Part shown: one piece after another, positions 4,374 through 46,960 of the stretch
How the letters are laid out: each line of letters opens with the position of its first letter
Numbering within the stretch: the first letter of the stretch is position 1
Assembly: GCA_018648825.1 (NCBI GenBank)
Contig: JABGQL010000034.1
Coordinates: 1 to 56,750 of the forward strand
DNA length: 56,750 bases
Reading direction: 5' to 3'
Source: Gammaproteobacteria bacterium
GTDB lineage: Bacteria > Pseudomonadota > Gammaproteobacteria > GCF-002020875
Notes under the pieces: generated by a model
Told to the model about the DNA's origin: nothing
Databases searched by the model: none
What the model saw: the letters and a program-made list of their open reading frames with translations, nothing else
Position numbers and translations under genes: made by a program

Positions 4374-5036
4374 CTATCTTCCTAAAAATCCATTTTCCGC
4401 AAGGAACTCCATGCTGATGCCTTGAGTATCCGGTTCGGCGGCGCGATCTCCCAACATCATCCGCTCTAGATAGCGGGCAATGAGATCGACTTCGAGGTTA
4501 ATTTTGGTACCCACCATAAACTCATCCATGGTGGTCTCTTGTAGAGTGTGGGGGACAATATTGAGATCAAAAACTGCGCCGTTGACACCATTCACGGTGA
4601 GGCTGATGCCATTGACAGTAATCGACCCCTTCTCTGCAATATAGCGAGCCAGCTCATCGGGTGCCTTGATTTTGAACTGTACCGAACGACCATCATCGGC
4701 TCGGCTGATCACCTCTCCTACGCCATCGACATGACCACTCACCAGATGACCGCCCAGACGGGTGGTTGGGGTCAGCGCCTTCTCTAAGTTCACGACAGAA
4801 CCCGCTTTCAAGGTTGCAAAGGCGGTACGGGCGAAGGTCTCACCTGAGACATCAGCAACAAAGCCATTTCCCGGCAGCTCTACAGCAGTCAGGCAGACCC
4901 CATTGACCGCAATACTGTCGCCGAGTTGCACATCTCCTAAGTCGAGCTTTCCGGTCTCTACAGCCACCTTTGCATCGTTCCCTTTGGGTTCGATACGACT
5001 GATTTTGCCGATTGATTCAATAATTCCTGTAAACAT
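4374..5036 (-). CDS. ribE: Riboflavin synthase (alpha chain)
   Basis: MFTGIIESIGKI start, internal duplicated barrel (GDSIAVNGVCLT / GSITVNGISLTV). Start trimmed to the MFTGII Met. Confidence 0.92.
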   Translation of the reverse strand: MFTGIIESIGKISRIEPKGNDAKVAVETGKLDLGDVQLGDSIAVNGVCLTAVELPGNGFVADVSGETFARTAFATLKAGSVVNLEKALTPTTRLGGHLVSGHVDGVGEVISRADDGRSVQFKIKAPDELARYIAEKGSITVNGISLTVNGVNGAVFDLNIVPHTLQETTMDEFMVGTKINLEVDLIARYLERMMLGDRAAEPDTQGISMEFLAENGFLGR

Positions 5037-5064
5037 GGGCGCGAATGTTACCACAAACGCCGCA

Positions 5065-7254
5065 TCACTCGATACGGAAGCTCTCTACCATCTTGATTAG
5101 CTGTTGTGAGTTCTGTGCCATATTCTGTGTAGAGGCTGAAGACTCCTCTACCATTGCAGCATTCTGCTGGTTCACGCTTTCTAGGTTAGAGACCGCTTGG
5201 TTCACCTGCCCTACATCCCGCTGCTGCTGATGCCCAACCTCACTAATTTGCGCAACCAGATCAGTCAATTGGTTAATCGCTTGGTGAATCTGTTGCAATG
5301 ACTTACCAGAACGGTTCACCTGTGCACTACCACTTTCAACACGGCTCACACTCTCTTCAATCAGCCCTTTCACCTCACTCGCCGCCTCGGAGGAGCGGTG
5401 CGCCAAATTGCGTACCTCTCCCGCAACCACGGCAAAGCCCTTACCTTGTTCTCCTGCACGGGCGGCCTCAACCGCCGCATTCAGTGCCAATAGATTCGTC
5501 TGGAAGGCGATAGAATCAATCACACCAATAATATCGGCAATACGACCACTGGAGTCTCGAATCCCCTCCATCGCCTCAATCGCCTGCTTAACAATCGTAT
5601 CCCCCTCTCCTGCCAGCTCGCTAGCCTCTTTAGACAGCGTACTCGCCTGATCGAGATGTCCCTGGCTCTGCTGAATACTCTGGTTCATCCCCTCCATATT
5701 CGCGGTTGTCTCTGACAGCGCCTGTGACTGCATAGCAATGCGTTCGGAGAGCGCCCCATTGCCACTGACCATATCGTTAGCCCCCAGCTCAACCTCAGCC
5801 GCAACCCCTCGTACCTGTTTCACCATATCGTGCAAATTATCGACGGTGTCATTGATTGAGTTCTTTAAGGTTAAGAAGTCGCCCTTATACTCACCCACCA
5901 TTCGCTGCGTCAAATCACCGTTAGAGACCTCAGGCAACACCTGTTCAACCTCTTGCAGTGGGGCCTGTAGTACATCCAGCATGCTGTTAATGCCATCCCC
6001 AAGCTCATGCAGATACCCTTCATAGCTGGTGGTATCGAGACGCTGCTGAATATCACCCTGCACTGCGGCATCAATCAGGCCTTGAATATCATTCTGGATA
6101 TTGTGCATCTCAGTCTTGTCGTGCCACTCTGCAATGGTACCTAAACGTTCGCCCGTCTCATTAAAGACCGGGATAAAAATTTGTTGAAGGATGCGCCCAG
6201 CCACCGTTACGGTCGATGTATGACCATTGACATCCATATCATCTAGGATCTTCTGGATGGCAGCAGGGTCACGGTGAAAATTATGGATATTCCCTCCCAC
6301 CAACTCATCCACGGAGAAGCTGGGGAGGACCTCACGAATCATCGACTCACGCTCCCGAAAGAAGCCTTCAACCGCCTTATTGAGATAGAGGATCTCCCCT
6401 TTAGGCCCGGCCAACATCACGTTGCTGGTGACATTATCCAGTGCCACCTTCAATTTTAGCGCCTCATTTTTCTCTGAAACAATCTTCCCAAACAGGTTCT
6501 GCTGCATATGATCGAGCGCGTTGATCAGGTCTACTGCCTCATTCTTCTGCTCAGTATGATGGTCAATGACTGTGGAAAAATCACCGCTGGCAATACGCCG
6601 TGCCGCCTCTACCGCAATACGCAGTGGAGCTGTGATCCCCCGTGAGATAAACAGTGAGATGGCAATCGCGATGGCCATACCAATCACAAACAGCAGTGCA
6701 ATATTGAGGAAGGTGCGTGGCCCAATCTCTTCCAGAGAGTCAACACGGAACAGTACCCGCAGCTCACCCCCATTATCCAATCCTGAGAGAGGCACAACCA
6801 TATAGAGCCGGTAGGGGTCATAACTCCAGTGACTCTTCTCTTCCGTAGCGCCTGTGAACTGCTCAAACAGACCTAAATCCTCCCCCACCATCTCTCCTCG
6901 TTGGAACTGGTGCTGTATCTCACGTGGCGGCTGTTTCGGGGAGAACGGAGTCGCCTCACGCGCTTCACTCATCCCCTTCATCTCCAGCCAGAGCAGGTCC
7001 GGATTGGCCTCATACAGCGCCTTGGCATCAGCAGAACGTAGCTTCATGATGTTGGCACCATTAATTGAGCGGGTCGCCAAACCTACCACGGGCTCTAGTG
7101 AGATACGCGCCTTCTCATATAGGTGCTCCCGTTCGCTATCCACACTGCTGCTATATTGGCTGACTGCCATAATGATCAATGCAATGGCACTCGGCAAGAT
7201 TGCAACCAACAGAATCGACCCACGAATAGAGTGGGGCAGTAGTGACTTCAGCAA
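5065..7254 (-). CDS. Membrane-bound methyl-accepting chemotaxis protein: 2 TM + HAMP + PAS (Aer2-like signature) + HAMP(s) + MA domain
   Basis: Signalling hairpin [40 protein letters not shown] segment with NIHNFHRDP ... TIAEWHDKTE. TTG start preceded by AAGAGGA. Confidence 0.85.
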   Translation of the reverse strand: MLKSLLPHSIRGSILLVAILPSAIALIIMAVSQYSSSVDSEREHLYEKARISLEPVVGLATRSINGANIMKLRSADAKALYEANPDLLWLEMKGMSEAREATPFSPKQPPREIQHQFQRGEMVGEDLGLFEQFTGATEEKSHWSYDPYRLYMVVPLSGLDNGGELRVLFRVDSLEEIGPRTFLNIALLFVIGMAIAIAISLFISRGITAPLRIAVEAARRIASGDFSTVIDHHTEQKNEAVDLINALDHMQQNLFGKIVSEKNEALKLKVALDNVTSNVMLAGPKGEILYLNKAVEGFFRERESMIREVLPSFSVDELVGGNIHNFHRDPAAIQKILDDMDVNGHTSTVTVAGRILQQIFIPVFNETGERLGTIAEWHDKTEMHNIQNDIQGLIDAAVQGDIQQRLDTTSYEGYLHELGDGINSMLDVLQAPLQEVEQVLPEVSNGDLTQRMVGEYKGDFLTLKNSINDTVDNLHDMVKQVRGVAAEVELGANDMVSGNGALSERIAMQSQALSETTANMEGMNQSIQQSQGHLDQASTLSKEASELAGEGDTIVKQAIEAMEGIRDSSGRIADIIGVIDSIAFQTNLLALNAAVEAARAGEQGKGFAVVAGEVRNLAHRSSEAASEVKGLIEESVSRVESGSAQVNRSGKSLQQIHQAINQLTDLVAQISEVGHQQQRDVGQVNQAVSNLESVNQQNAAMVEESSASTQNMAQNSQQLIKMVESFRIE

Positions 7255-7327
7255 TGTCTTTATCCTCTTAAAGATACAGCAACAACAAGCAATGGCAGGC
7301 TACCTATAGCCAATCCGACTTGAACTC

Positions 7328-7828
7328 TTATTTTGCAGTACCGCACTGCCCATTGAGACAGAACGCCTCATAACCGGTATGGCAGACAATACAGGTCTCC
7401 TCACTCAGCTGGGGCATGGCATTGGTCAGATTCTTTCCATCTTCACCATAGGTACGATAGACCGGCAGACCATTGCTGTAGCCGGTAAACATGATCGCTT
7501 TAAGGTCGATCAGGTGCAGTGCCATCTGTGGTCCATCACTAAAGTGGCCGTCACGTTTCTGATAGTTTGACTCAGAGCCCGGAGCAACCAAGATATTGAC
7601 CTTGCCTGGCCCCCCTTCACGCAGTGCACAGTAGGTGGCAACCGTCTCCTGGTAGATCGGCGGCAGTGATGAGACATCCGCCTCACAACCTGGCAACGCA
7701 CCAATCCCTGTTAGTGTGGTGTTAACCCCTTTCCATTCACTCCAGTTCGCAGGAAACTCAAAGGCTATCGCTCCTGAGGAGAGGGTAGCAAGTGAAGCGG
7801 TGAATAGCATGGCAATGGTTTTTTTCAT
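7328..7828 (-). CDS. Secreted c-type heme protein, cytochrome P460 / cytochrome c'-beta family-like
   Basis: Sec signal peptide and a single CIVCH heme-c motif near the C-terminus. FPANWSEWKGV and the RDGHFSDGPQMALHL blocks resemble my recollection of NYREWV... / GEFRDGTVTVKE / CAACH in Nitrosomonas P460. Confidence 0.55.
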   Translation of the reverse strand: MKKTIAMLFTASLATLSSGAIAFEFPANWSEWKGVNTTLTGIGALPGCEADVSSLPPIYQETVATYCALREGGPGKVNILVAPGSESNYQKRDGHFSDGPQMALHLIDLKAIMFTGYSNGLPVYRTYGEDGKNLTNAMPQLSEETCIVCHTGYEAFCLNGQCGTAK

Positions 7829-7900
7829 TGGGGAATTCCTTAATTGTCAGAATGTCATTTGAGTATACAAGCGGGTTTCACCTTCGTCTATCTAGAGGTA

Positions 7901-8070
7901 CCCTAGGAACCTGTCCGAGATATAGAGAACCTACTGCAAATCCCATAAAAGCCATAATCTGAGCCTATCGAATTCGTTAAATAGCGACACTATTCGCCTC
8001 ATTCAATAGGCTCACCTTATAATTTTTCTGTGATTTTCGCTACGGCTTCTATTCTCGGACAAGCTCCTAG
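7901..8070. repeat. ~170-bp imperfect palindromic intergenic element (arms 7901-7973 and 8001-8070)
   Basis: Arm cores CTAGGAACCTGTCCGAGA and, in reverse complement, CTAGGAGCTTGTCCGAGA match 16/18. By hand alignment about 76% complementarity continues over roughly 70 nt per arm, ending in GAGCCTAT(C/T)GAAT. Confidence 0.7.
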
Positions 8071-8072
8071 AC

Positions 8073-8579
8073 TCATTTGGGCAACTCAAAACAGAGTTCA
8101 TCAGGCAGCATTTTCTGAATCTCTCTGCGCAATAATGCTTCATCAATCGGTTTACGCAACAGGCTGAAACCTTCTCCAATCTGCTCTTCAAGGAGTTCAT
8201 TTTTGTAGTCACTATATGCCGTAAAGAAAATAATTGGCAGATTTGGATTCTGCTCACGCAGCCCCAAGGCGGTCTCCAATCCATCAATTCCGGGGGGCAT
8301 CCGCATATCCAGCAGAACTAAATCAAAGGGGGTGCCTGCTGCGGCCATCTCCCCAAAAACCCGTAAGGCATCTAACCCTTGGCTTACAGTAACCGCTCTA
8401 CAGTGGCTAGGGGCGTGCTCTTGTAGAGGGTCTTCGCCCTCCAACAAGGAGAACATCTCATCTAGCTCTTGATCAGTATCCTGCTCTTCTGGCGTAGCGG
8501 GTAAACCCAGCGCCAGCCGATAGTAGTCGATAACTCTTGGATCATCATCAGCAATCAGCAGATGTGGCTCTCTATGCAT
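8073..8579 (-). CDS. Stand-alone receiver (CheY-like) response regulator with an acidic insertion after beta1
   Basis: LLIADDDP, LVLLDMRMPPGIDG, IIFFTAYSD and LRKP receiver motifs, with no output domain. The ATG at 8579 overlaps the kinase stop by 8 nt. The longer ORF-track start was rejected. Confidence 0.8.
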   Translation of the reverse strand: MHREPHLLIADDDPRVIDYYRLALGLPATPEEQDTDQELDEMFSLLEGEDPLQEHAPSHCRAVTVSQGLDALRVFGEMAAAGTPFDLVLLDMRMPPGIDGLETALGLREQNPNLPIIFFTAYSDYKNELLEEQIGEGFSLLRKPIDEALLRREIQKMLPDELCFELPK

Positions 8580-9894
8580 TTTTATCAACTTTAATCGGTA
8601 GTTCAACAACCATAATCGCCCCCTGATTCTCCCCATCGCTCTCTGCGTAGAGCTCTCCATTGAGATGATGCACAAAATTGATGGCAGAATGCAAGCCATA
8701 ACCACTGCCTGTCACTTTGTTGGTCTGTCCAAACTGGAAAATCTGCTCCAGACGCTCCTTAGCGATACCACACCCATTGTCACTAATGGTTAATACAAAA
8801 CGCCCCCCATCCTCACTCTCTGGAATCAGAATTCGGGTAGAGAGTTCAATACGCCCCTGATGAGAGTATTGGTGACGAATCCGTTCACCAATCGCCTCCA
8901 TGCTATTTTTGATGAAGTTCATCACCATCTGAATCATCGGATTTCTGGGCAACTCTACCCGCCGCAGTTCTGGATCAAGCGTCTGCACCACCTCAATGCC
9001 AAACTTATCGACCCGGTCATGAATCAAGCTCAAGGTATCACTCAACATGCCACTAAAATCAAAACGGGTGATATGGGTATCTGGACGCGCTGCTCTCTGC
9101 TGAAGCTGAATAATCTCTCCAATATGGTGTATACCCAATTCTAGCTTATTCAGGTACTGCATCATCTTCTCTTCACTGCGCAATCCCCCGAGAATTTTCA
9201 CCCCCGCCTGTAACACTTGCGTATCACGTTGAATCTGAGCCTCAAGCTGCTCAGCAGTATGGTGTGGCTGCTGACAACTCTCCTGAGCCTTTAACAACCC
9301 TTTTTCAAGGCGTTCAATCTGGGATGGAATACGCCCTAAGTGCATCAATGAACCATGCATTCCGGTCACAATATTACCGATATTGTGCAGAATCGAGGCG
9401 CTCATCTCTGCAATACCCGCCTGAAAAGCTGCGTACTGTTGTGCCTCATCCCCTTTGATACGGTCACTGATATCAATCACCACCATCAAGGTTTCATGCC
9501 CTAAATCCTCACTATGGACCTCAACCAGCGGCACAAATTGCACCAATGCAGTAGCCACCCCCTCTTGGCGATGAATTTCATGTTGAATACGCCCTTCGGG
9601 GTGTGATCGTAAGGGGAGCCTCAAGGCATCTCCATATGGGTCGATAGCACTCCCTTCAGGGTTCTCCCCAAACAGCTCATGAAAACTGGGGTTAATCGAG
9701 ATAACCTGCTCATCGTCATAGAGCATCATCGCCACCGGAAGCGCCTGAATTAAATTAGAGAAACGGTGATTTTCTTGCTGTAACAGCTGGTTAGTCTCAT
9801 ACAGCTCCAAACTCTTCTGTTCTAGCAGTCGCTCTGCCTCTTTACGCGCAATGCGCAATGCGCTCACGCTTGAATCGCCGTTCCAGCAGTGCAA
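8572..9894 (-). CDS. H-NOX-associated cytoplasmic sensor histidine kinase (HnoK-like); original 5' end out of frame
   Basis: H-box SASILHNIGNIV, N-box MNFIKNSMEAI, G1 DNGCGI and G2 GSGYGLH, directly downstream of the H-NOX gene. The ORF begins at TTG 9894 (GGAG sits 7 nt upstream). The ancestral ATG appears to be at 9916 in another frame. Confidence 0.8.
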   Translation of the reverse strand: MHCWNGDSSVSALRIARKEAERLLEQKSLELYETNQLLQQENHRFSNLIQALPVAMMLYDDEQVISINPSFHELFGENPEGSAIDPYGDALRLPLRSHPEGRIQHEIHRQEGVATALVQFVPLVEVHSEDLGHETLMVVIDISDRIKGDEAQQYAAFQAGIAEMSASILHNIGNIVTGMHGSLMHLGRIPSQIERLEKGLLKAQESCQQPHHTAEQLEAQIQRDTQVLQAGVKILGGLRSEEKMMQYLNKLELGIHHIGEIIQLQQRAARPDTHITRFDFSGMLSDTLSLIHDRVDKFGIEVVQTLDPELRRVELPRNPMIQMVMNFIKNSMEAIGERIRHQYSHQGRIELSTRILIPESEDGGRFVLTISDNGCGIAKERLEQIFQFGQTNKVTGSGYGLHSAINFVHHLNGELYAESDGENQGAIMVVELPIKVDKNA

Positions 9895-9916
9895 TCTGTT
9901 TCTCCAGCGCCTCCAT
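9842..9916 (-). other. Orphaned original 5' end of the kinase gene (24 codons, MEALEKQIALLERRFKRERIAHCA*)
   Basis: ATG 9916 is preceded by AAGGGGGA. The frame runs into TAA at 9842-9844 only because of the 7-bp duplication. Removing one copy fuses it in frame to ...RIARKEAERLLEQKS... Confidence 0.7.
9850..9863. repeat. 7-bp tandem duplication AATGCGC AATGCGC (GCGCATT x2 on the coding strand)
   Basis: Read directly: cgcgc-aatgcgc-aatgcgc-tcac. Confidence 0.95.
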
Positions 9917-9937
9917 TCAGCTATCCCCCTTTAAGCA

Positions 9938-10486
9938 TTACAGTTGACTGGTAATGGTAAAACGCATGTGGTTACCGATACCGTTTGAGAGGTCCACTTC
10001 TTCAACCGATAGCTGCTCCCCAAAGTAGATGGCGCTCCCCTGGATCAGCCCTTTTGCCAGTGCTGAAAAGGGGCGCTTTGACTGGTACTCCATCATCAGT
10101 TGATTACCCGTTCGCTGGGTTTTAAAACGGGGCAGCTCTGCCTCGGGATAGAGTTTAAGTACCTCAACATGGATGTGGTTATCGACACTCTCCAAAAAAT
10201 CCAGCGTACTCTCGGCCTTTTCAAAGAAGCTAGGATAGATCTCGGCAAAGCGCCCGGCTAGATGGGTACCAAAGGTGGTAACCAGTTCATTCATCTCTAC
10301 ACCTGAAGCCTTGGAAAGCTCTGTCACCAGCTCTACCAACTCTAGATGGTCATAAACCCCTACACTGGTATAGCTCCCACCAGAGTCTAGTTTTGCAGAG
10401 GCCGCCTCGATAATATCGTCGGCCATTTGGGGAGAGAACTCCTCCTCCACCATCTCAATAAATTCTGAAAAAACAATTCCTTTCAT
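9938..10486 (-). CDS. H-NOX (heme nitric oxide/oxygen binding) sensor protein
   Basis: MKGIVFSEFIEMVEEEF start, a His in VDNHIHVEV, and the Y-x-S-x-R heme-propionate motif (YQSKR). Size is about 182 aa. Start trimmed to MKGIVF. Confidence 0.85.
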   Translation of the reverse strand: MKGIVFSEFIEMVEEEFSPQMADDIIEAASAKLDSGGSYTSVGVYDHLELVELVTELSKASGVEMNELVTTFGTHLAGRFAEIYPSFFEKAESTLDFLESVDNHIHVEVLKLYPEAELPRFKTQRTGNQLMMEYQSKRPFSALAKGLIQGSAIYFGEQLSVEEVDLSNGIGNHMRFTITSQL

Positions 10487-10503
10487 GCTGACACCCAATA
10501 GCA

Positions 10504-10526
10504 GATAATAGTAATTGACTATTATC
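10504..10526. promoter_or_regulatory. Perfect 9-5-9 palindrome GATAATAGT-AATTG-ACTATTATC upstream of the H-NOX gene (candidate operator)
   Basis: Read directly. It lies in the AT-rich 55-bp ribD/H-NOX spacer and overlaps a weak TTAATT-N16-TATTAT promoter-like arrangement on the minus strand. Confidence 0.4.
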
Positions 10527-10541
10527 AATTAATATAAAGCA

Positions 10542-11651
10542 TTACACGCTACAGAACCTTGCGGTAATACGCAAGTCATCTCCCAACTGGCGCAACTCAT
10601 CAATCTTTAGCGCGACCTTCTGCTCCATACTTTTTAACGGTAATGTAAAGAGCGCACGCCCCTCACTCCCCATTAACAGAGGAGCGGTATAGATAACCAG
10701 CTCATCGGCCAACTGCTGTTCAACAAAGGCGCCTGCCAAGGTGGCCCCCGCCTCAACATGGAGCTCATTAACCTCCAACTCAGCCAACTTTCCCAACAAC
10801 TCGCTGAGGTCCAACCCCTGCTCTGTCGAAGGTAGCTGCAGCACTCTGACTTGAGGGTGCTGTAACCAACCTTGAGGAGCGACAGCCCCCTCCGCAATCA
10901 CCATCAGCACTGGGCTCTCTATCGTAAAAAGCTTTGCCGTTGCGGGTGTCTTCGCCTGAGGATCTAAAATCACTCTTAATGGTGGTTTAAACGACTGCTC
11001 CAAATCACGTACATTGAGTGAAGGGTCATCCGCCAACACCGTCCCCACTCCGCTCAAGATGGCCGAGCTGCGTGCTCGCAATCGCTGCACATCATGACGT
11101 GCGGCAGCACCGGTAATCCACTGACTCTCTCCCGAGGCCATGGCTGTACGCCCATCTAAACTCTGCGCCATCTTCACCCGTACATAGGGGCGACTATAGC
11201 GCATGCGCTGTAAAAAACCGGGGTTGACCTGCTCCGTCCCCTCCGGCATCAGACCACTGACAACCTCAATACCCGCTGCCTGCAGCTTACGAATACCGTT
11301 GCCGGATACAGCAGGGTTGGGGTCTTGCAGTGCAATCACTACACGCACAACTCCCGCCGCAATCAGAGCCTCACTACAAGGGGGGGTTTTACCGTGGTGA
11401 CTACAGGGCTCTAGGGTAACGTAGGCGGTTGCCCCCACAGCCCGCTCACCAGCCGCTTGTAGCGCATGAATCTCGGCATGAGGACCACCTGCCTCAATAT
11501 GATACCCCTCACCCACAACATCTCCCTGCTTGACCAGCACACACCCCACCCGAGGGTTGGGATTGGTAGTAAAGAGTCCTTTTGCAGCCAGCCGATGGGC
11601 CTGTGCCATCCAGCAATGGTCTTCAGCGGAGAATGGCGTTATCTCTCCCAT
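10542..11651 (-). CDS. ribD: Bifunctional diaminohydroxyphosphoribosylaminopyrimidine deaminase / 5-amino-6-(5-phosphoribosylamino)uracil reductase
   Basis: HAEI.AL, TLEPCSHHGKTPPC (CDA zinc motif) and a reductase half. The start overlaps the nrdR stop (TAATG). Confidence 0.95.
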   Translation of the reverse strand: MGEITPFSAEDHCWMAQAHRLAAKGLFTTNPNPRVGCVLVKQGDVVGEGYHIEAGGPHAEIHALQAAGERAVGATAYVTLEPCSHHGKTPPCSEALIAAGVVRVVIALQDPNPAVSGNGIRKLQAAGIEVVSGLMPEGTEQVNPGFLQRMRYSRPYVRVKMAQSLDGRTAMASGESQWITGAAARHDVQRLRARSSAILSGVGTVLADDPSLNVRDLEQSFKPPLRVILDPQAKTPATAKLFTIESPVLMVIAEGAVAPQGWLQHPQVRVLQLPSTEQGLDLSELLGKLAELEVNELHVEAGATLAGAFVEQQLADELVIYTAPLLMGSEGRALFTLPLKSMEQKVALKIDELRQLGDDLRITARFCSV

Positions 11652-17606: not shown

Positions 17607-18131
17607 TTGAGCAGAATTAGACAGAACATCTTTCTAGTGGGGCTGATGGGAGCAGGAAAATCAACCATCGGTAAACGGCTGGCCGAGAGCTTGGGAAAAG
17701 AGTTTCTCGACAGCGATCATGAGATTGAGGCACGTACGGGGGTATCCATCCCTACCATCTTTGATATTGAGGGGGAGTCTGGCTTTCGCAACCGCGAGAG
17801 CAATGTCATCGATGAGCTGAGTCAAAGCAAGGACATCGTCTTGGCAACCGGAGGCGGCGCGATACTACGCCCCGAAAACCGCTCTCACCTTGCCGCACGA
17901 GGGTTGGTGATCTACCTCTGCGCCACCGCAGAGCAGCTTCACAAGCGCACCCGCCATGACCGTAACCGCCCCCTGCTACAGAATAAAGACCCTCTCAGTA
18001 CGCTACAGGCACTACTGGACGAACGTGATCCACTCTACCGTGAGGTCGCCGATCTGGTGGTAGAGACCGATGACCGCTCTGTACAGCAGGCGATCCCTGA
18101 GCTGATTGAGAAGATAGAGAAACTGGCATGA
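17607..18131 (+). CDS. aroK: Shikimate kinase
   Basis: [16 protein letters not shown] Walker A, DSD, GGG. Confidence 0.95.
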
Positions 18132-19225
18132 GCACAGAGAGACCACATACCCTGAATGTTGATCTGGGTGAGCGCAGCTACCCCATCCATATTGGCAGCA
18201 ACCTGTTGGGTGACCCACAGTGGGTGAGCGAGCATGTACACGGCACCCAAGTGATGATTGTCACCAACGAGACCATCGCCCCACTCTACCTAGAGCAGAC
18301 CCGTAAGGCATTTGAGGGGTTTCAGGTAGAGACCGTAATCCTTCCCGATGGCGAACAGTACAAAAATCTAGAGGTATGGAACCAAATCTTTGATGCCCTG
18401 CTCTCCAAACGCTTTGATCGCAAATGCACACTGGTTGCACTCGGCGGCGGGGTCATTGGCGACATCACCGGCTATGCCGCAGCCAGCTATCAGCGCGGGG
18501 TCCACTTTATCCAGATCCCCACCACACTACTGGCACAAGTCGACTCCTCTGTTGGGGGCAAGACTGGGGTCAACCACCCGCTTGGCAAGAACATGATTGG
18601 TGCCTTCCACCAGCCACAGTGTGTATTGGCCGATACCAGCACCCTGAATACACTGGATGACCGACAGCTGAGCGCCGGAATTGCCGAGGTGGTGAAATAT
18701 GGACTGATCCGCGACCCCGATTTTTTCAGCTGGCTGGAGCAGAATATGGCGCAGCTAATCGAGCGTGATCCCACGGCTCTTGCCTACGCCGTCCAGCGCT
18801 CTTGTGAAAATAAGGCTGAGGTGGTTGCTGCCGATGAGCTAGAAGCGGGACAACGCGCCCTACTCAACTCCGGCCACACCTTCGGTCATGCGATTGAGGC
18901 AGGCATGGGTTACGGGGCTTGGCTACATGGTGAGGCCGTGGCTGCTGGGATGATGATGGCCTCTGACCTCTCGATGCGTGAGGGGTGGATAGAGGCGAGC
19001 GATGTAGAGCGGCTACAAAAACTGCTACAACAGGCAAATCTCCCTGTGGCGGGTCCACCCGATCTCTCTGCAGAGCGCTACCTCGATATTATGTCGGTCG
19101 ATAAGAAGGCAGAGGCCGGGCAGATCCGTTTTGTACTGCAGAAGGCGATTGGCGATGCCATCGTCACCGACCAGTTCTCACCGCAGAAGCTACAAGAGAC
19201 ACTCTCTCACTGCCGCCAACCCTAA
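18128..19225 (+). CDS. aroB: 3-dehydroquinate synthase
   Basis: [30 protein letters not shown] and GHTFGHAIE. Overlaps the aroK stop. Confidence 0.95.
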
Positions 19226-42649: not shown

Positions 42650-44356
42650 TCAAAACATCTCAATATCAAGGCCATCGAAAGAGCCTTTTGAGTGGTCACT
42701 ACCACTTCCCTTATCACTCTCTTCCACTGCACCTTCATCATCAGCTTGTACAGAGAGTGAAAAAGCCCCCATCTCTGTCACTAGCTCCGCAACCGCTCCT
42801 TGAATGGCCTGGCTGGCAACCCTAACCTCCTGCACCATATTACGGTTCTGCTGGTTAGAGCCGCTTAACTGTTCTAGATCTCGATTAACCTGCTCAACCT
42901 CCTCTAGCTGTTTGCCCCCAGCATCAGAGATGGCCTGCACCGATGTAGTCATCTCTGCCACATCTGATGAGATTTTACTAAACACCGTTCCTGTCGCCTC
43001 AACACACTGTCGCCCCACCTCGACCTCACTCACGCTGCTTTCAACCAGCTTTTTAATCTCCCGCGCCGAATCTGCGGAGCGTTGTGCCAAACTACGTACC
43101 TCACCTGCAACCACTGCAAAACCGCGCCCCTGCTCACCCGCTCTTGCAGCCTCAACTGCGGCATTCAGCGCTAACAGGTTAGTCTGAAATGCAATGCTGT
43201 CAATTACACCAACAATGTCAGATATCTTCTGGCTGGAGTCGCTAATCCCGCGCATAGAGTGCACCGCCTCTTGCATAGTAGACTCTCCGGCCACCGCATC
43301 TTCCCGTAGCTGATCCGCCAACAGCCGGGTGTTCCGTATGTTTTCACGGCCTTTTTTAAACTCCGAGACCATCCTTGATACCGCTTCAGCAATACGTTCA
43401 CTACTCTCACTCTGGTCGGCAATATGTGACTTAAGTGCTGAATTTCTGCCCGCAATCATCACACTGTGCCGGTCGATATCACGGGTTGCAGCCCTTGCCT
43501 TGTGCAGTATCTTGTTCAAGTTGTGGACCATGCCATTTAATGAGAGCTTCAGGTTCTTATATTTTCCTGCATAACTCCCTTCCATCTGCTGAGTAAGATC
43601 GCCCTGCTCAATAAGCGGCAGTACACGTAACAGCTCCTGAATCGGTTCCCGTACCGTCTCGACTACTTGGTTGATACTGGTCCCCATAAACTGCATAAAA
43701 CCGGAAAATTCATCAATATCCAAGGTACTCCCTAGGTCCCCATAGAGAATATCTCCCACTACATCCTCCAGCTTGCGCTCCATTGCCCGCTGACCCGTAT
43801 AATCCTCCCACTGTAAAACATAGCTGATACTGCCATCTGGCAACTGAACAGGATCAATACTCACCTGTATAACCAGAGCCCCAACATAGAGAGTCTCTTT
43901 TTCTCCGGGCTGAATGGTCTCTAACTCAACATATTCACTAAAGGAGAAGGTAGATAGTGGCTCTTGCACATCAAACCTCGGCTGCTTTTCCAGAATATCT
44001 TCAGCAGCATCATTTAACCATTGCAACATCGATGTGTTGGCAAACAGCGGCTGAAACAGCTCATTGAACATAACCAAAGGTACGCTCATCTGATTCATTG
44101 CATGCAGATAGAGTGCACTCTCTTTGAACTGCTGCTTCATCTGCATCTGGCTAGAGCCGATACGACGATGCCCATCCAGTACAGCACGGATTACATACTG
44201 TTCACTAGACTCCCCCCTGCCGCACTCAATCTCCGTAATCTCTTCAATACTTTTTCTCAGCTTGTTACGTTGGTTATGGCTTCGCCACAACAGGGTAAAA
44301 GCGAATAGCGACAGAACTGCACTAAGGATGAACAGGGAAAAATAGGGCGTATTCAT
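42650..44356 (-). CDS. Methyl-accepting chemotaxis protein (1 N-terminal TM, PAS-like, HAMP, MA)
   Basis: [40 protein letters not shown]-like segment ending in [10 protein letters not shown] but lacking the FHxxP His. Confidence 0.85.
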
Positions 44357-44392: not shown

Positions 44393-46492
44393 TTATATAT
44401 AGTCACTAAACTCCCGATCTTCATTCAAAATATGGCCTATCCAGATCTCCTTTAAGTACTGATAGGCCTGTACAGGGTGGAGTGTATATTGATAGTCAAC
44501 CAGCTGCTGAATGCCTCGACGGACTAACTCATGCTTATCATGATGCTCCTTACTGTATAGATACTGCGCATCATTAAGCACCATCTCTTCAGAAAGCAGA
44601 TGAAACTCTGCATACTCCTGCATCTCATTGAGAATCGACTGCAGCTGCGCCTCTGCATTCCCATGCTCTATTGCTGCAACCAGACGGTTAATAATTTTAA
44701 AGAGCATTTGATGCTGCTGATCAATCTCCTTGTGACCGATACCAAAGCGCTCCGCACTCCACTCAATTACACTCACCTCTGACTGCGAAGAGTGAGCCAA
44801 ATCGGGCTGATGCTGAAGGTCCTGTTGCAGAAAGCCTACAAAGGCAGAGAGGGAGAGCGGCTTACTGTAGTAAAACCCCTGAATCAGATTCACTCCACAT
44901 TTTAACAATATCCTTCTCTGTTGCTGCTCCTCAACCCCCTCAACCACCATCTCAATATTCATCATGTTAGCCATCTCACTCAAGGCCTGAATGATGGTTT
45001 GACTGGGCGAATTATCTGCGAGGTCCGTAATAAAGGATCGATCCAGCTTCAGAATATCCACCTCAAATAGCCGCAGATAACTGAGCGAGGAGTACCCTGT
45101 CCCAAAGTCATCCAACGCGACCTTTATCCCCAGTTTACGAAATTGATTGAGGACCTTCTTACCTTGGGCCAAATCTTTCATCAGCTCACTCTCTGTCAGC
45201 TCAATACAGAGTTTGGATGGAGAGATTTGATAATACTCCAGCCGATCTGCAACAAAATCGAATAGCCCCTCATCCTTTAGGTCACTCGCCGAAAGATTGA
45301 CCGAGAAATAACTCAGCACAAGATTATGCTGCTCTTGTAGTGCCTGATACTGCTGTAGTGCACGCTCCAGCACCATCTGGCTGATCGCCCCAATCCACCC
45401 CTCTGCCTCAGCAATGGGAATAAAGCGCGAGGGAGGCACCAGACCCAACACCTCTGAGTTCCAGCGTAACAGCACCTCGGCAGAGACCACTTGCCTGCTG
45501 AACACGGCCACCTGAGGCTGCCAAACCAACTCAAACGCCTCACCACTCTCCTCAAAAATGGCTTGGTACAGCAACGCCTTGAGTGAAAGCACCCCCTCCT
45601 CTGGCTGCTGCTCAGGCAGCTCCATCTCCGCCTCTTTCAACAGTGCAGCAGCACTCTTCTCCCCCTTCCACCCAACCACCACCCCCAGCTTTATCTGATC
45701 AAAGCAGCGCTCTTCACAACATTTGATATCGGAGAGTATCAACTCAATATCTCCCTGATCTCTAATCAGGTCTAGCATCACCAAGAAGCTATGATGACTA
45801 TTACGCAACATATTTTTGTGGCCCACCAGCTCACTCAAGCTTGAGGTCATCTCCCGCAACCATTCGTGGCTCTGCTGCAACGTCTCATAAGGACTCTGGA
45901 GACGCAGGATACCCACACCGGTAGCCAATTTTTGGCTATTGATAATCGCCTGCTCCAGACGGTCCATAAAGATCATCTTGCTGGGTAGCTCAGTCACGCT
46001 ATCCACCAGAGAGAGCTGCTGTCCCTTGAACTGTTTCTGCAGGTTCATAGCCTGCAGTAGCAGCTGATTCTCACTCTCCAGCTTTTTATGGTAGACCTTG
46101 AGTTGGAGCAGGTTATGAATACGCAATAACAGCGTATCTAGGTCGATCGGTTTAGTAACCAGATCCCACGCCCCCTGAGATAGCGCCTGTTCAGGCAGTT
46201 GGGTCTGCGTCTCTCCTGTAACCATCAACACCGCAGGGCGCTCATACAGTGGAACTTGAGATAGGTTCTGTAGCACCTCAATCCCACTCATCTCCGGCAT
46301 ACATTGATCCAGTAACAATAGATCAAAGTCCAACTCTTTTAATAACTCCAGTGCAGAGAGCGGATTATTGAGTGAGGTTATATTTTTATAACCGGCATAA
46401 CCCAGACTTTTTGTAAGCACCCCAACAAACACTGGGTCATCATCCACGACCAAGATGTTGCTCTCTTGCAGATTAATCTCTTCCGACATCAT
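44393..46492 (-). CDS. Response regulator: REC + degenerate GGDEF + EAL c-di-GMP phosphodiesterase + C-terminal hemerythrin-like domain
   Basis: - REC: VVDDDP, LLLLDQCMP, TKP.
- GGDEF-like start D.VTELPSK..FMDRL, but NSHHSF replaces GGDEF.
- EAL motifs ELTE, N, DDFGTGYSS, KLD, EGVE and QG are all present.
- The C-terminus carries the IDQQHQ..., H...EE, HDKH and GHILNED hemerythrin pattern. Confidence 0.8.
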   Translation of the reverse strand: MMSEEINLQESNILVVDDDPVFVGVLTKSLGYAGYKNITSLNNPLSALELLKELDFDLLLLDQCMPEMSGIEVLQNLSQVPLYERPAVLMVTGETQTQLPEQALSQGAWDLVTKPIDLDTLLLRIHNLLQLKVYHKKLESENQLLLQAMNLQKQFKGQQLSLVDSVTELPSKMIFMDRLEQAIINSQKLATGVGILRLQSPYETLQQSHEWLREMTSSLSELVGHKNMLRNSHHSFLVMLDLIRDQGDIELILSDIKCCEERCFDQIKLGVVVGWKGEKSAAALLKEAEMELPEQQPEEGVLSLKALLYQAIFEESGEAFELVWQPQVAVFSRQVVSAEVLLRWNSEVLGLVPPSRFIPIAEAEGWIGAISQMVLERALQQYQALQEQHNLVLSYFSVNLSASDLKDEGLFDFVADRLEYYQISPSKLCIELTESELMKDLAQGKKVLNQFRKLGIKVALDDFGTGYSSLSYLRLFEVDILKLDRSFITDLADNSPSQTIIQALSEMANMMNIEMVVEGVEEQQQRRILLKCGVNLIQGFYYSKPLSLSAFVGFLQQDLQHQPDLAHSSQSEVSVIEWSAERFGIGHKEIDQQHQMLFKIINRLVAAIEHGNAEAQLQSILNEMQEYAEFHLLSEEMVLNDAQYLYSKEHHDKHELVRRGIQQLVDYQYTLHPVQAYQYLKEIWIGHILNEDREFSDYI

Positions 46493-46960
46493 TACCCCTC
46501 CCCACACTGGGCACGTTGAACAGTGCCTTTCAGACTGGCCCTAGAGACCAGGACTTGACCCGCAGCAATCGGGGTCCTTACCTTATATAGAGCAATCGAT
46601 TGGTTATTTTTCACGCTTCTTCCTCCGCAACTGGATCAGCCAACAATCCATTGCATCTTTAACAAAATACGAACGATCTGTTAAAGGTTCTAAGAGGAGT
46701 TATGAAGAGGAACCCCCGTTCTTCTTCTTCTTCAAAATCCGTTCCAAAATAGCGCTAAATCCACAGAAATCATATTCTTGAGTATTTCTTAGGATTTAAC
46801 TTTCTCCAGTGTGACTGATCCATCAGAAAAATTCAATAACCCCTAGTAGCTACCACTAAGATATACGATACGCTTTCCACACTCATAACTCCGCTCTCTC
46901 TCCCCTTTTGTTAGTATGGATGGAATTTACAGCCTCTATATACTGTCGCATACTCTCTCA

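Follow-up and report, generated by a model that had tools for sequence, protein, structure and literature searches.

Five genes for signalling proteins lie inside a riboflavin (rib) operon, and the question raised by this locus is whether they form one system tied to flavin supply or reached this position for another reason. The locus was found in a stretch of 56,750 nt from contig JABGQL010000034.1 (assembly GCA_018648825.1), referred to as the window, whose layout was established from a listing of open reading frames and Pfam scans. The source is an uncultured marine bacterium; metagenome-assembled genomes (MAGs) of its closest relatives carry the NCBI label "uncultured Piscirickettsiaceae", and RuBisCO is present in one of them. 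The usual gene order is nrdR-ribD-ribE-ribBA-ribH-nusB-thiL, as in Pseudomonas aeruginosa. The window has an unbroken minus-strand run of glyA, nrdR, ribD, the five signalling genes, ribE, ribBA, ribH, nusB and thiL. Our analysis indicates that the five genes are almost certainly two independent, unrelated heme-sensor cassettes placed side by side in the ribD-ribE gap, and that they most likely lie in the rib operon because insertion is tolerated there, with no functional coupling. The genes and spacers concerned are the following.

10542-11651, minus strand: ribD, the upstream flank of the insertion (Pfam dCMP_cyt_deam_1 and RibD_C)
9938-10486, minus strand: stand-alone H-NOX heme sensor, 182 aa (Pfam HNOB, PF07700), cassette 1
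8572-9894, minus strand: cytoplasmic PAS-histidine kinase (Pfam PAS_8 and HATPase_c), cassette 1
8073-8579, minus strand: receiver-only response regulator, 168 aa (Pfam Response_reg, 2.4e-13), cassette 1
7829-8072, minus strand: 244-nt spacer between the receiver and heme-protein genes, the boundary between the cassettes
7328-7828, minus strand: predicted periplasmic heme-c protein, 166 aa, a putative remote relative of cytochrome P460/c'-beta, cassette 2
5065-7254, minus strand: transmembrane methyl-accepting chemotaxis protein (MCP), 729 aa (Pfam HAMP, HAMP_2 and MCPsignal), cassette 2
5037-5064, minus strand: ribE leader, of which about 22 nt before the ATG (5037-5058) are conserved as GTGRTAC-YAT-CCGCGCCC
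4374-5036, minus strand: ribE (riboflavin synthase), the downstream flank (Pfam Lum_binding, 9e-50)

The first-pass annotation of this DNA had described five co-oriented genes between ribD and ribE with junctions of 55 and 28 nt, and both the open reading frames and the relatives bear this out. The ribD stop is 55 nt from the H-NOX ATG (10486), the MCP stop (5065) is 28 nt from the ribE ATG (5036), and the MFTGII start of RibE is kept in relatives. GC content is 0.47-0.54 over the block, and the composition is uniform. The identical arrangement, with an identical heme protein, was recovered in four independent metagenome assemblies of the same population (loci L007-L010), and the five-gene order was also found in three further lineages (L011/L012, L016 and L019) with protein identities of about 75-80%. 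Because the order recurs in independent assemblies and in related lineages, it is real and not an assembly artefact. The same annotation had called an H-NOX protein, a histidine kinase, a receiver-only regulator and an MCP with an Aer2-type PAS domain, all of which were confirmed by Pfam and PDB matches; its count of three predicted heme-based modules (H-NOX, P460/c'-beta-like heme-c protein and Aer2-type PAS) also holds as a prediction.

The reading of the five genes as a single system was supported in part and contradicted in part when the ribD-ribE junctions of relatives were compared. All five genes occupy the gap in the window, L007-L012, L016 and L019, so the order is kept in four lineages. 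Three other lineages (L013/L014, L015 and L087) have only the H-NOX-kinase-receiver triad, and the receiver gene runs straight to ribE. In one of these genomes, GCA_964344735.1, the triad lies in the rib operon (L015), and the heme-protein/MCP pair is found on another contig (L001), between a gene for an FAD-linked oxidase and sspB. The five genes are therefore partly scattered among relatives, and cassette 1 fills the ribD-ribE gap in every recovered lineage of the narrow clade.

The spacing within the block follows the same division: 244 nt separate the two cassettes, compared with an 8-nt overlap of the receiver start with the kinase stop. A sigma-70-like site (TAGACG-17-TATACT, 9/12 matches) is present in the 244-nt spacer at 7890-7862, but it is weak evidence because promoter and terminator scans of the region gave counts that were not above shuffled expectation. 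At the other end of the block, the ribE leader of about 22 nt (GTGRTACYATCCGCGCCC) is conserved in the window, L011, L013, L015, L016, L019 and L087, whether an MCP or a receiver gene precedes it. Since the leader is the same whichever gene comes before, it fixes the right-hand boundary of the cassette 2 insertion; the left-hand boundary is the 244-nt spacer. Judged from these junctions, cassette 2 was inserted, in a subset of the clade, downstream of the receiver gene and ahead of the conserved ribE leader. The ribE identities place the two most distant lineages (83% and 73%) among those with three genes. The simplest history, read from identities and not from a tree, would have the triad in place before the pair entered, plus one additional loss or independent gain.

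The two cassettes also differ in their distribution beyond the clade. H-NOX homologues with at least 70% identity all lie in the ribD-ribE gap, and those with at most 60% identity are located beside hybrid HisKA kinases and never near rib genes, so the rib-embedded triad is a narrow, clade-specific feature. One of the distant homologues (59% identity; L086, 469-4281) lies close to a multi-PAS protein of 1270 aa that includes a Tll0287-like (heme-c Cache) domain, which indicates that different heme sensor types recur together in other genomes as well.

The distribution of cassette 2 was determined by scanning one genome per species for the heme-protein gene, which gave 69 reference-genome loci. 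These belong to Gamma- and Betaproteobacteria, Campylobacterota, Nitrospinota, Nitrospirales, MAGs labelled Deltaproteobacteria, Halobacteriovoraceae and Cloacimonadota. At 63 of the 69 loci, a same-strand MCP is directly adjacent, and its N-terminal domain matches a hidden Markov model of the ectodomain of the window MCP. The paired MCP is usually downstream of the heme-protein gene; in several Nitrospinota and Nitrospirales loci it is upstream. Outside the window clade, no H-NOX or rib genes were found near the pair, and the first four contexts (a gammaproteobacterial relative, Magnetococcus, Sulfurimonas and Nitrospira salsa) all consisted of heme protein and MCP without H-NOX. The six exceptions to the pairing comprise two contig ends, one truncated transmembrane sensor of unidentified type, one divergently oriented MCP without the shared ectodomain and two loci without an MCP. 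The carriers are mostly gradient-dwelling chemolithoautotrophs or microaerophiles, such as Nitrospinota, Nitrospirales, Sulfurimonas, Gallionella and Thiobacillus. The heme-protein/MCP pair thus appears to be a mobile two-gene unit that is conserved over many phyla and apparently undescribed; in the literature searched, P460 was co-mentioned with "chemotaxis" or "methyl-accepting" only in passing, and no paper joining P460 and a chemoreceptor was found.

Several single loci depart from the common form. A Chromatiaceae MAG (L063, 3334-5383) has a variant heme protein (CSACH) and no MCP nearby, and a Piscirickettsiaceae MAG (L018, 5905-6474) has an orphan heme-protein copy that is 83% identical. 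In a Cloacimonadota MAG (L038, 3685-6483), the MCP is divergently oriented and lacks the shared ectodomain. A Helicobacteraceae MAG (L075, 5986-10189) has one heme-protein gene followed by two tandem MCPs, both with the family-specific ectodomain, and the start of a second MCP gene of this ectodomain type is visible at the contig end of L046. A 1320-aa match to the heme-protein profile (P0279) was checked as a possible fusion and rejected, as it is a protein of immunoglobulin-like (Ig) repeats.

The product of the fourth gene has a signal-peptide-like hydrophobic N-terminus ending in AIA, a single CxxCH motif (CIVCH at residues 146-150) and four further conserved Cys residues, which form two extra Cys pairs. 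These features, with all six Cys positions included, are consistent with a c-type heme protein located in the periplasm. Its homologues form 121 clusters at 90% identity, all unnamed, and a set of 1.84 billion proteins contains only 50 representatives of the family at 50% identity. Among 45 family members, 33 match Pfam Cytochrome_P460 (PF16694) below the threshold (13-26.9 bits; gathering cut-off 27), and the matches run collinearly and extend over the C-terminal CxxCH. A PDB search with a profile of close homologues gave no match. When a profile of divergent members (A3) was searched against the PDB, the top 11 matches were all P460 or c'-beta proteins (7EAD, 6HIH, 6W6N, 8GAR, 2JE2 and others; E 0.004-0.3). 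No Lys is present in the invariant or at least 90% conserved columns of the 45 homologues, and the heme-lysine cross-link that defines P460 proper is therefore not expected. No match to PF11845 (sCache_heme) was obtained at E <=10 for the heme-c protein or the MCP ectodomain. This evidence, weak but specific, leads us to place the heme-c protein on a distant, c'-beta-like branch of the P460 superfamily, apart from the P460 enzymes. The P460/c'-beta-like call of the first-pass annotation thus stands as remote homology, and it fails as a Pfam assignment of the window protein itself.

The MCP encoded next to it consists, in order, of a first transmembrane segment, an ectodomain, a second transmembrane segment, HAMP (202-254), PAS (about 262-385), HAMP_2 (413-474, di-HAMP) and MCPsignal (539-694). 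The two transmembrane-like segments lie within residues 8-35 and 177-211, and the whole protein contains no Cys. Two of its domains are relevant to the proposed sensing function.

6700-7158, minus strand: periplasmic domain of the MCP, about residues 33-185 (about 150 aa), without annotation, specific to MCPs encoded beside the heme protein
6100-6471, minus strand: Aer2-type PAS-heme domain of the MCP, about residues 262-385, matching the Aer2 PAS

Searches of Pfam and of PDB sequences gave no match for the ectodomain, whose invariant motifs are GxN.M.L, G.S, PP and NGG. As it has neither Cys nor CxxCH, it cannot itself carry heme c. A single-sequence AlphaFold2 model of the ectodomain (predicted local distance difference test score, pLDDT, 46) suggests, without being reliable, a PAS/Cache-like fold through its helix-then-beta topology. 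The PAS domain matches that of P. aeruginosa Aer2 (3VOL, 9.4e-23; 4HI4, 7.7e-20; 6CEQ, 8e-11), and the heme His of FH and the ligand-stabilising Trp of EW align with Aer2. Residues 262-727 match the NCBIfam model of Vibrio Aer2 (4e-134), with 449 bits against an equivalog cut-off of 1200 that is not reached. Among the paired MCPs, 49 of 52 have the cytoplasmic part of a plain receptor of about 500-580 aa with a plain HAMP; a CZB domain is added in Magnetococcus, and the Aer2 PAS/di-HAMP module occurs only in the Piscirickettsiaceae versions (730-750 aa).

Co-variation within the pair was evaluated using pairwise identities. The heme protein correlates with the ectodomain (r 0.78) and with the signalling domain (r 0.74). 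The partial correlation is 0.45 for the ectodomain when the signalling domain is controlled for, and 0.27 for the signalling domain. The mean identity is 60% for the heme protein, compared with 33% for the ectodomain. The co-variation of heme protein and ectodomain is suggestive, not decisive.

For cassette 2, we propose that the exported heme-c protein would serve as a ligand- or redox-sensing subunit, with NO, CO or the periplasmic redox state as candidate signals; NO or CO as ligand is suggested by analogy with c'-beta. The heme-c protein would dock on the dedicated, Cys-free ectodomain of the MCP and so control CheA, making the pair a periplasmic counterpart of the partner-protein logic of H-NOX. 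In the window clade only, the MCP has gained the Aer2-type PAS-heme/di-HAMP module as well, which would add a second, cytoplasmic gas input. Cassette 1 is a cytoplasmic NO-type two-component module, in which, by analogy with characterised H-NOX/HnoK pairs, ligand-bound H-NOX would modulate autophosphorylation of the kinase and phosphotransfer to the receiver. We rate the co-receptor mechanism of cassette 2 as having somewhat better than an even chance. The account as a whole, two cassettes of which the second works in this way, is our best explanation and is held with moderate confidence, a rating that reflects the mechanism.

Adjacency alone would also fit an arrangement of enzyme plus receptor. 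In such a case, the heme-c protein would be an enzyme or detoxifier, performing P460-like hydroxylamine or NO oxidation or cytochrome c'-like NO scavenging, and the MCP would sense the substrate or product independently through its own ectodomain. Such a role agrees with the protein's remote homology to P460/c'-beta, whose known functions are catalysis or NO binding, with the few loci without an MCP and with the prevalence of chemolithoautotrophs of redox and nitrogen-cycling gradients among the carriers. However, there is no near-invariant Lys, so the P460 cross-link of hydroxylamine-oxidising enzymes is not conserved. Strict pairing with one ectodomain over phyla, with no conserved metabolic neighbours, is more typical of a receptor and its co-receptor, and the family is tiny and highly conserved while the ectodomain diverges. 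We regard an enzyme or detoxifier as unlikely.

The c'-beta relatives are typically five-coordinate gas binders, which does not favour a heme-c protein that reports the periplasmic electron-transport or redox state instead of a diffusible gas. Such a protein would be reduced and oxidised by respiratory cytochromes, and the pair would be an energy-taxis device. An exported c-type heme protein is suited to this, the carriers are overwhelmingly gradient-dwelling chemolithoautotrophs and microaerophiles, and the L001 pair lies near cytochrome bc1 genes, but no linkage to respiratory genes is conserved across the loci. In favour of a redox signal, stand-alone heme-Cache proteins are reported to behave as redox, not NO-sensing, proteins (PMC12889525). 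The redox reporter is a variant of the co-receptor reading in which the signal alone differs, and sequence cannot separate the two; we consider it rather unlikely.

That all five genes form one integrated NO/O2/CO system, whose rib placement links gas or redox stress to flavin supply, is quite improbable. In its favour, all the genes point the same way, the junctions are short, no convincing terminator interrupts them, their order is kept in four lineages and the gases bound by the three types of sensor could plausibly be the same. On the other side, the triad stands alone in the gap of three lineages, and the pair lies elsewhere in one genome and occurs without H-NOX or rib genes at 63 of the 69 loci, in other phyla. 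Rib genes are never close to the H-NOX homologues outside the clade, and between the cassettes there are 244 nt with a promoter-like site. An Rfam scan of the whole 56.7-kb window gave no family at gathering score and no FMN (flavin mononucleotide) riboswitch near the rib genes, and nothing was found that supports the functional link between flavin and NO suggested by the first-pass annotation.

Several points weigh against the co-receptor reading and the two-cassette account in which it stands. The window heme-c protein alone has no Pfam (even at E 10), NCBIfam or PDB sequence match, and its homology to P460/c'-beta consists of sub-threshold but consistent profile matches (E 0.004-0.3). A Foldseek search of its AlphaFold2 model (pLDDT 82.8, apo) against the PDB returned no P460 and nothing better than E ~1, so fold identity with P460 is not claimed. 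The heme protein occurs without an MCP at L018 and L063, and at L038 the MCP is divergently oriented and without the shared ectodomain. Pairing was counted from the heme-protein side only. The mirror-tree correlation is modest and is confounded by shared descent. No terminator was found between the block and the rib genes, and thus co-transcription and some regulatory coupling with the riboflavin genes may occur. From sequence we infer heme binding, the identity of the ligand, the contact between heme protein and MCP, and any co-transcription with the rib genes.

In cassette 1, the HNOB match of the H-NOX protein scores 129.3 bits against a cut-off of 25.5 (E 1.7e-37) and covers profile positions 1-162 of 163. 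The best PDB match is 6OCV (1.7e-39), and in the alignment with 6OCV and 6BDE the proximal heme His (IHVEV) and the YxSxR motif (YQSKR) are kept. By these features, the first gene encodes a bona fide H-NOX, predicted to bind heme and NO. The kinase gene is directly 3' of it, with a gap of about 45-70 nt from the H-NOX stop, depending on the start codon. The start codon is uncertain, which leaves a kinase length of about 431-445 aa; in other assemblies the gene is called at 431 or at 445 aa. The kinase matches HATPase_c (2.4e-14) with visible N, G1 and G2 boxes. The Pfam scan gave no HisKA match for it; SASILHNIGN is a candidate H-box, found by inspection only. The receiver shows the DDD, D, T and K residues in its sequence. 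It has a strongly acidic insertion of about 45 aa (PATPEEQDTDQELDEMFSLLEGEDPLQEH...) shortly past the DDD pocket, and its orthologues are 166-170 aa long. A role of the receiver as a CheY-like bridge between the cassettes was set aside, as three-gene relatives keep the receiver without an MCP nearby.

A palindrome was found in the 55-nt spacer upstream of cassette 1.

10512-10531, minus strand: palindrome TAATTGA-N6-TCAATTA in the ribD/H-NOX spacer

A similar AATTGA-N6-7-TCAATT is present in the otherwise divergent ribD/H-NOX spacers of L011, L013 and L019, and the palindrome may serve cassette 1 as an operator or as a promoter element. The ribE leader has no obvious Shine-Dalgarno sequence and in L013 can form a GCGGATG/CATCCGC hairpin; it may be an element of translational control or coupling.

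Elsewhere in the window, a 704-aa protein of receiver (REC), EAL and hemerythrin domains (44393-46507, minus strand) adjoins a 568-aa MCP (HAMP_2 and MCPsignal; 42650-44356, minus strand). The match of this MCP to the Aer2 model (2e-82) covers the C-terminal half of the model, and no sensor domain could be recognised in the MCP. These neighbours are a second sensing pair of the O2/NO/iron type in the window. The REC-EAL part of the 704-aa protein is HnoB-like, and the H-NOX kinase might transfer a phosphoryl group to this protein. In L007, a Transposase_mut gene (17725-18972) lies just past the MFS gene downstream of thiL, a position that the other listed assemblies do not reach.

H-NOX/kinase operons and Aer2 receptors are already established, and the most interesting outcome is the widely conserved heme-protein/MCP cassette, which lay outside the framing of the first-pass annotation. 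Should the heme protein prove to be the subunit through which the MCP senses, chemotaxis would gain a new type of input, with a free periplasmic c-type cytochrome in the role of co-receptor. A conserved family whose members are so far listed as hypothetical would then have a function, as would a new MCP ectodomain; signalling would join catalysis and NO scavenging among the roles of the P460/c'-beta fold; and there would be an Aer2-type receptor with a genuine periplasmic input. The way in which uncultured oxidisers of sulfur, iron and nitrite locate oxic-anoxic interfaces would also become easier to approach. We see an even chance that the cytochrome and the ectodomain form a phylum-spanning class of two-subunit chemoreceptor with which chemolithoautotrophs of gradients (Sulfurimonas, Nitrospina, Nitrospira, Gallionella, Magnetococcus and the Thiomicrospira group) position themselves at redox interfaces, and that the window receptor adds gas sensing in two compartments. 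The placement in the rib operon matters less. The ribD-ribE junction seems to tolerate successive insertions of signalling cassettes in one clade, a clade-specific curiosity that cautions against taking physical clustering for functional coupling.

Comparison with known systems locates each cassette. Cassette 1 resembles the H-NOX/HnoK systems of Shewanella oneidensis and Vibrio cholerae, in which a stand-alone H-NOX gene is directly upstream of the gene for a cytoplasmic histidine kinase. The window H-NOX keeps the heme His and YxSxR, its best PDB matches (6OCV, 6BDE, 2KII and 4U99) are proteins of heme NO binding, and an HnoB-like REC-EAL protein is encoded elsewhere in the window. In contrast, the window kinase has PAS_8 and no Pfam HisKA, whereas the nearest outgroup H-NOX proteins are paired with hybrid HisKA kinases. 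The cognate regulator is also distinct, being receiver-only with its acidic insertion of about 45 aa, as is the location of the operon between ribD and ribE; no paper treating both H-NOX and ribD was found in the literature searched.

The heme-c protein shares with P460/c'-beta proteins (PF16694; 2JE2, 6HIH and 7EAD) the character of a small exported protein of about 140 mature residues, with a collinear series of an N-terminal FP..W..W, a central block ('vnP...ypdGt') and a single C-terminal CxxCH. It differs in its sub-threshold Pfam score, the lack of a conserved cross-link Lys, the two extra Cys pairs and the lack of a Foldseek match to P460, and it is tied genomically to a chemoreceptor and not to nitrogen-oxide metabolism. 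The MCP resembles Aer2 of P. aeruginosa (PA0176) and V. cholerae (VCA1092) in its heme PAS with proximal His and distal Trp, followed by di-HAMP and the signalling domain. Aer2-like receptors have been described without a periplasmic domain (PMC7184735), whereas the window MCP has two transmembrane segments, an ectodomain of about 150 aa and an exported partner predicted to carry heme.

The proposed docking of a separate periplasmic protein on the ectodomain of a transmembrane receptor has its models in MBP-Tar, LuxP-LuxQ and TorT-TorS, and in LuxPQ and TorTS the partner genes are adjacent, as in the heme-protein/MCP pair. Unlike the partners of these binding-protein-dependent receptors, the window partner is a putative c-type heme protein and not a Venus-flytrap protein, and its docking is suggested by adjacency and co-variation only. 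Covalent heme-c sensors within the Cache or PAS domain of the receptor itself are known from sCache_heme (DUF3365/Tll0287; PMC12889525) and from the Geobacter MCPs GSU0582 and GSU0935 (PMC8396549). These share with the proposed system a periplasmic c-type heme as the NO or redox sensory cofactor that feeds MCPs or kinases, and stand-alone forms exist among them. In the window, however, the ectodomain has no Cys, and the heme would be carried by a separate polypeptide of a P460-like lineage.

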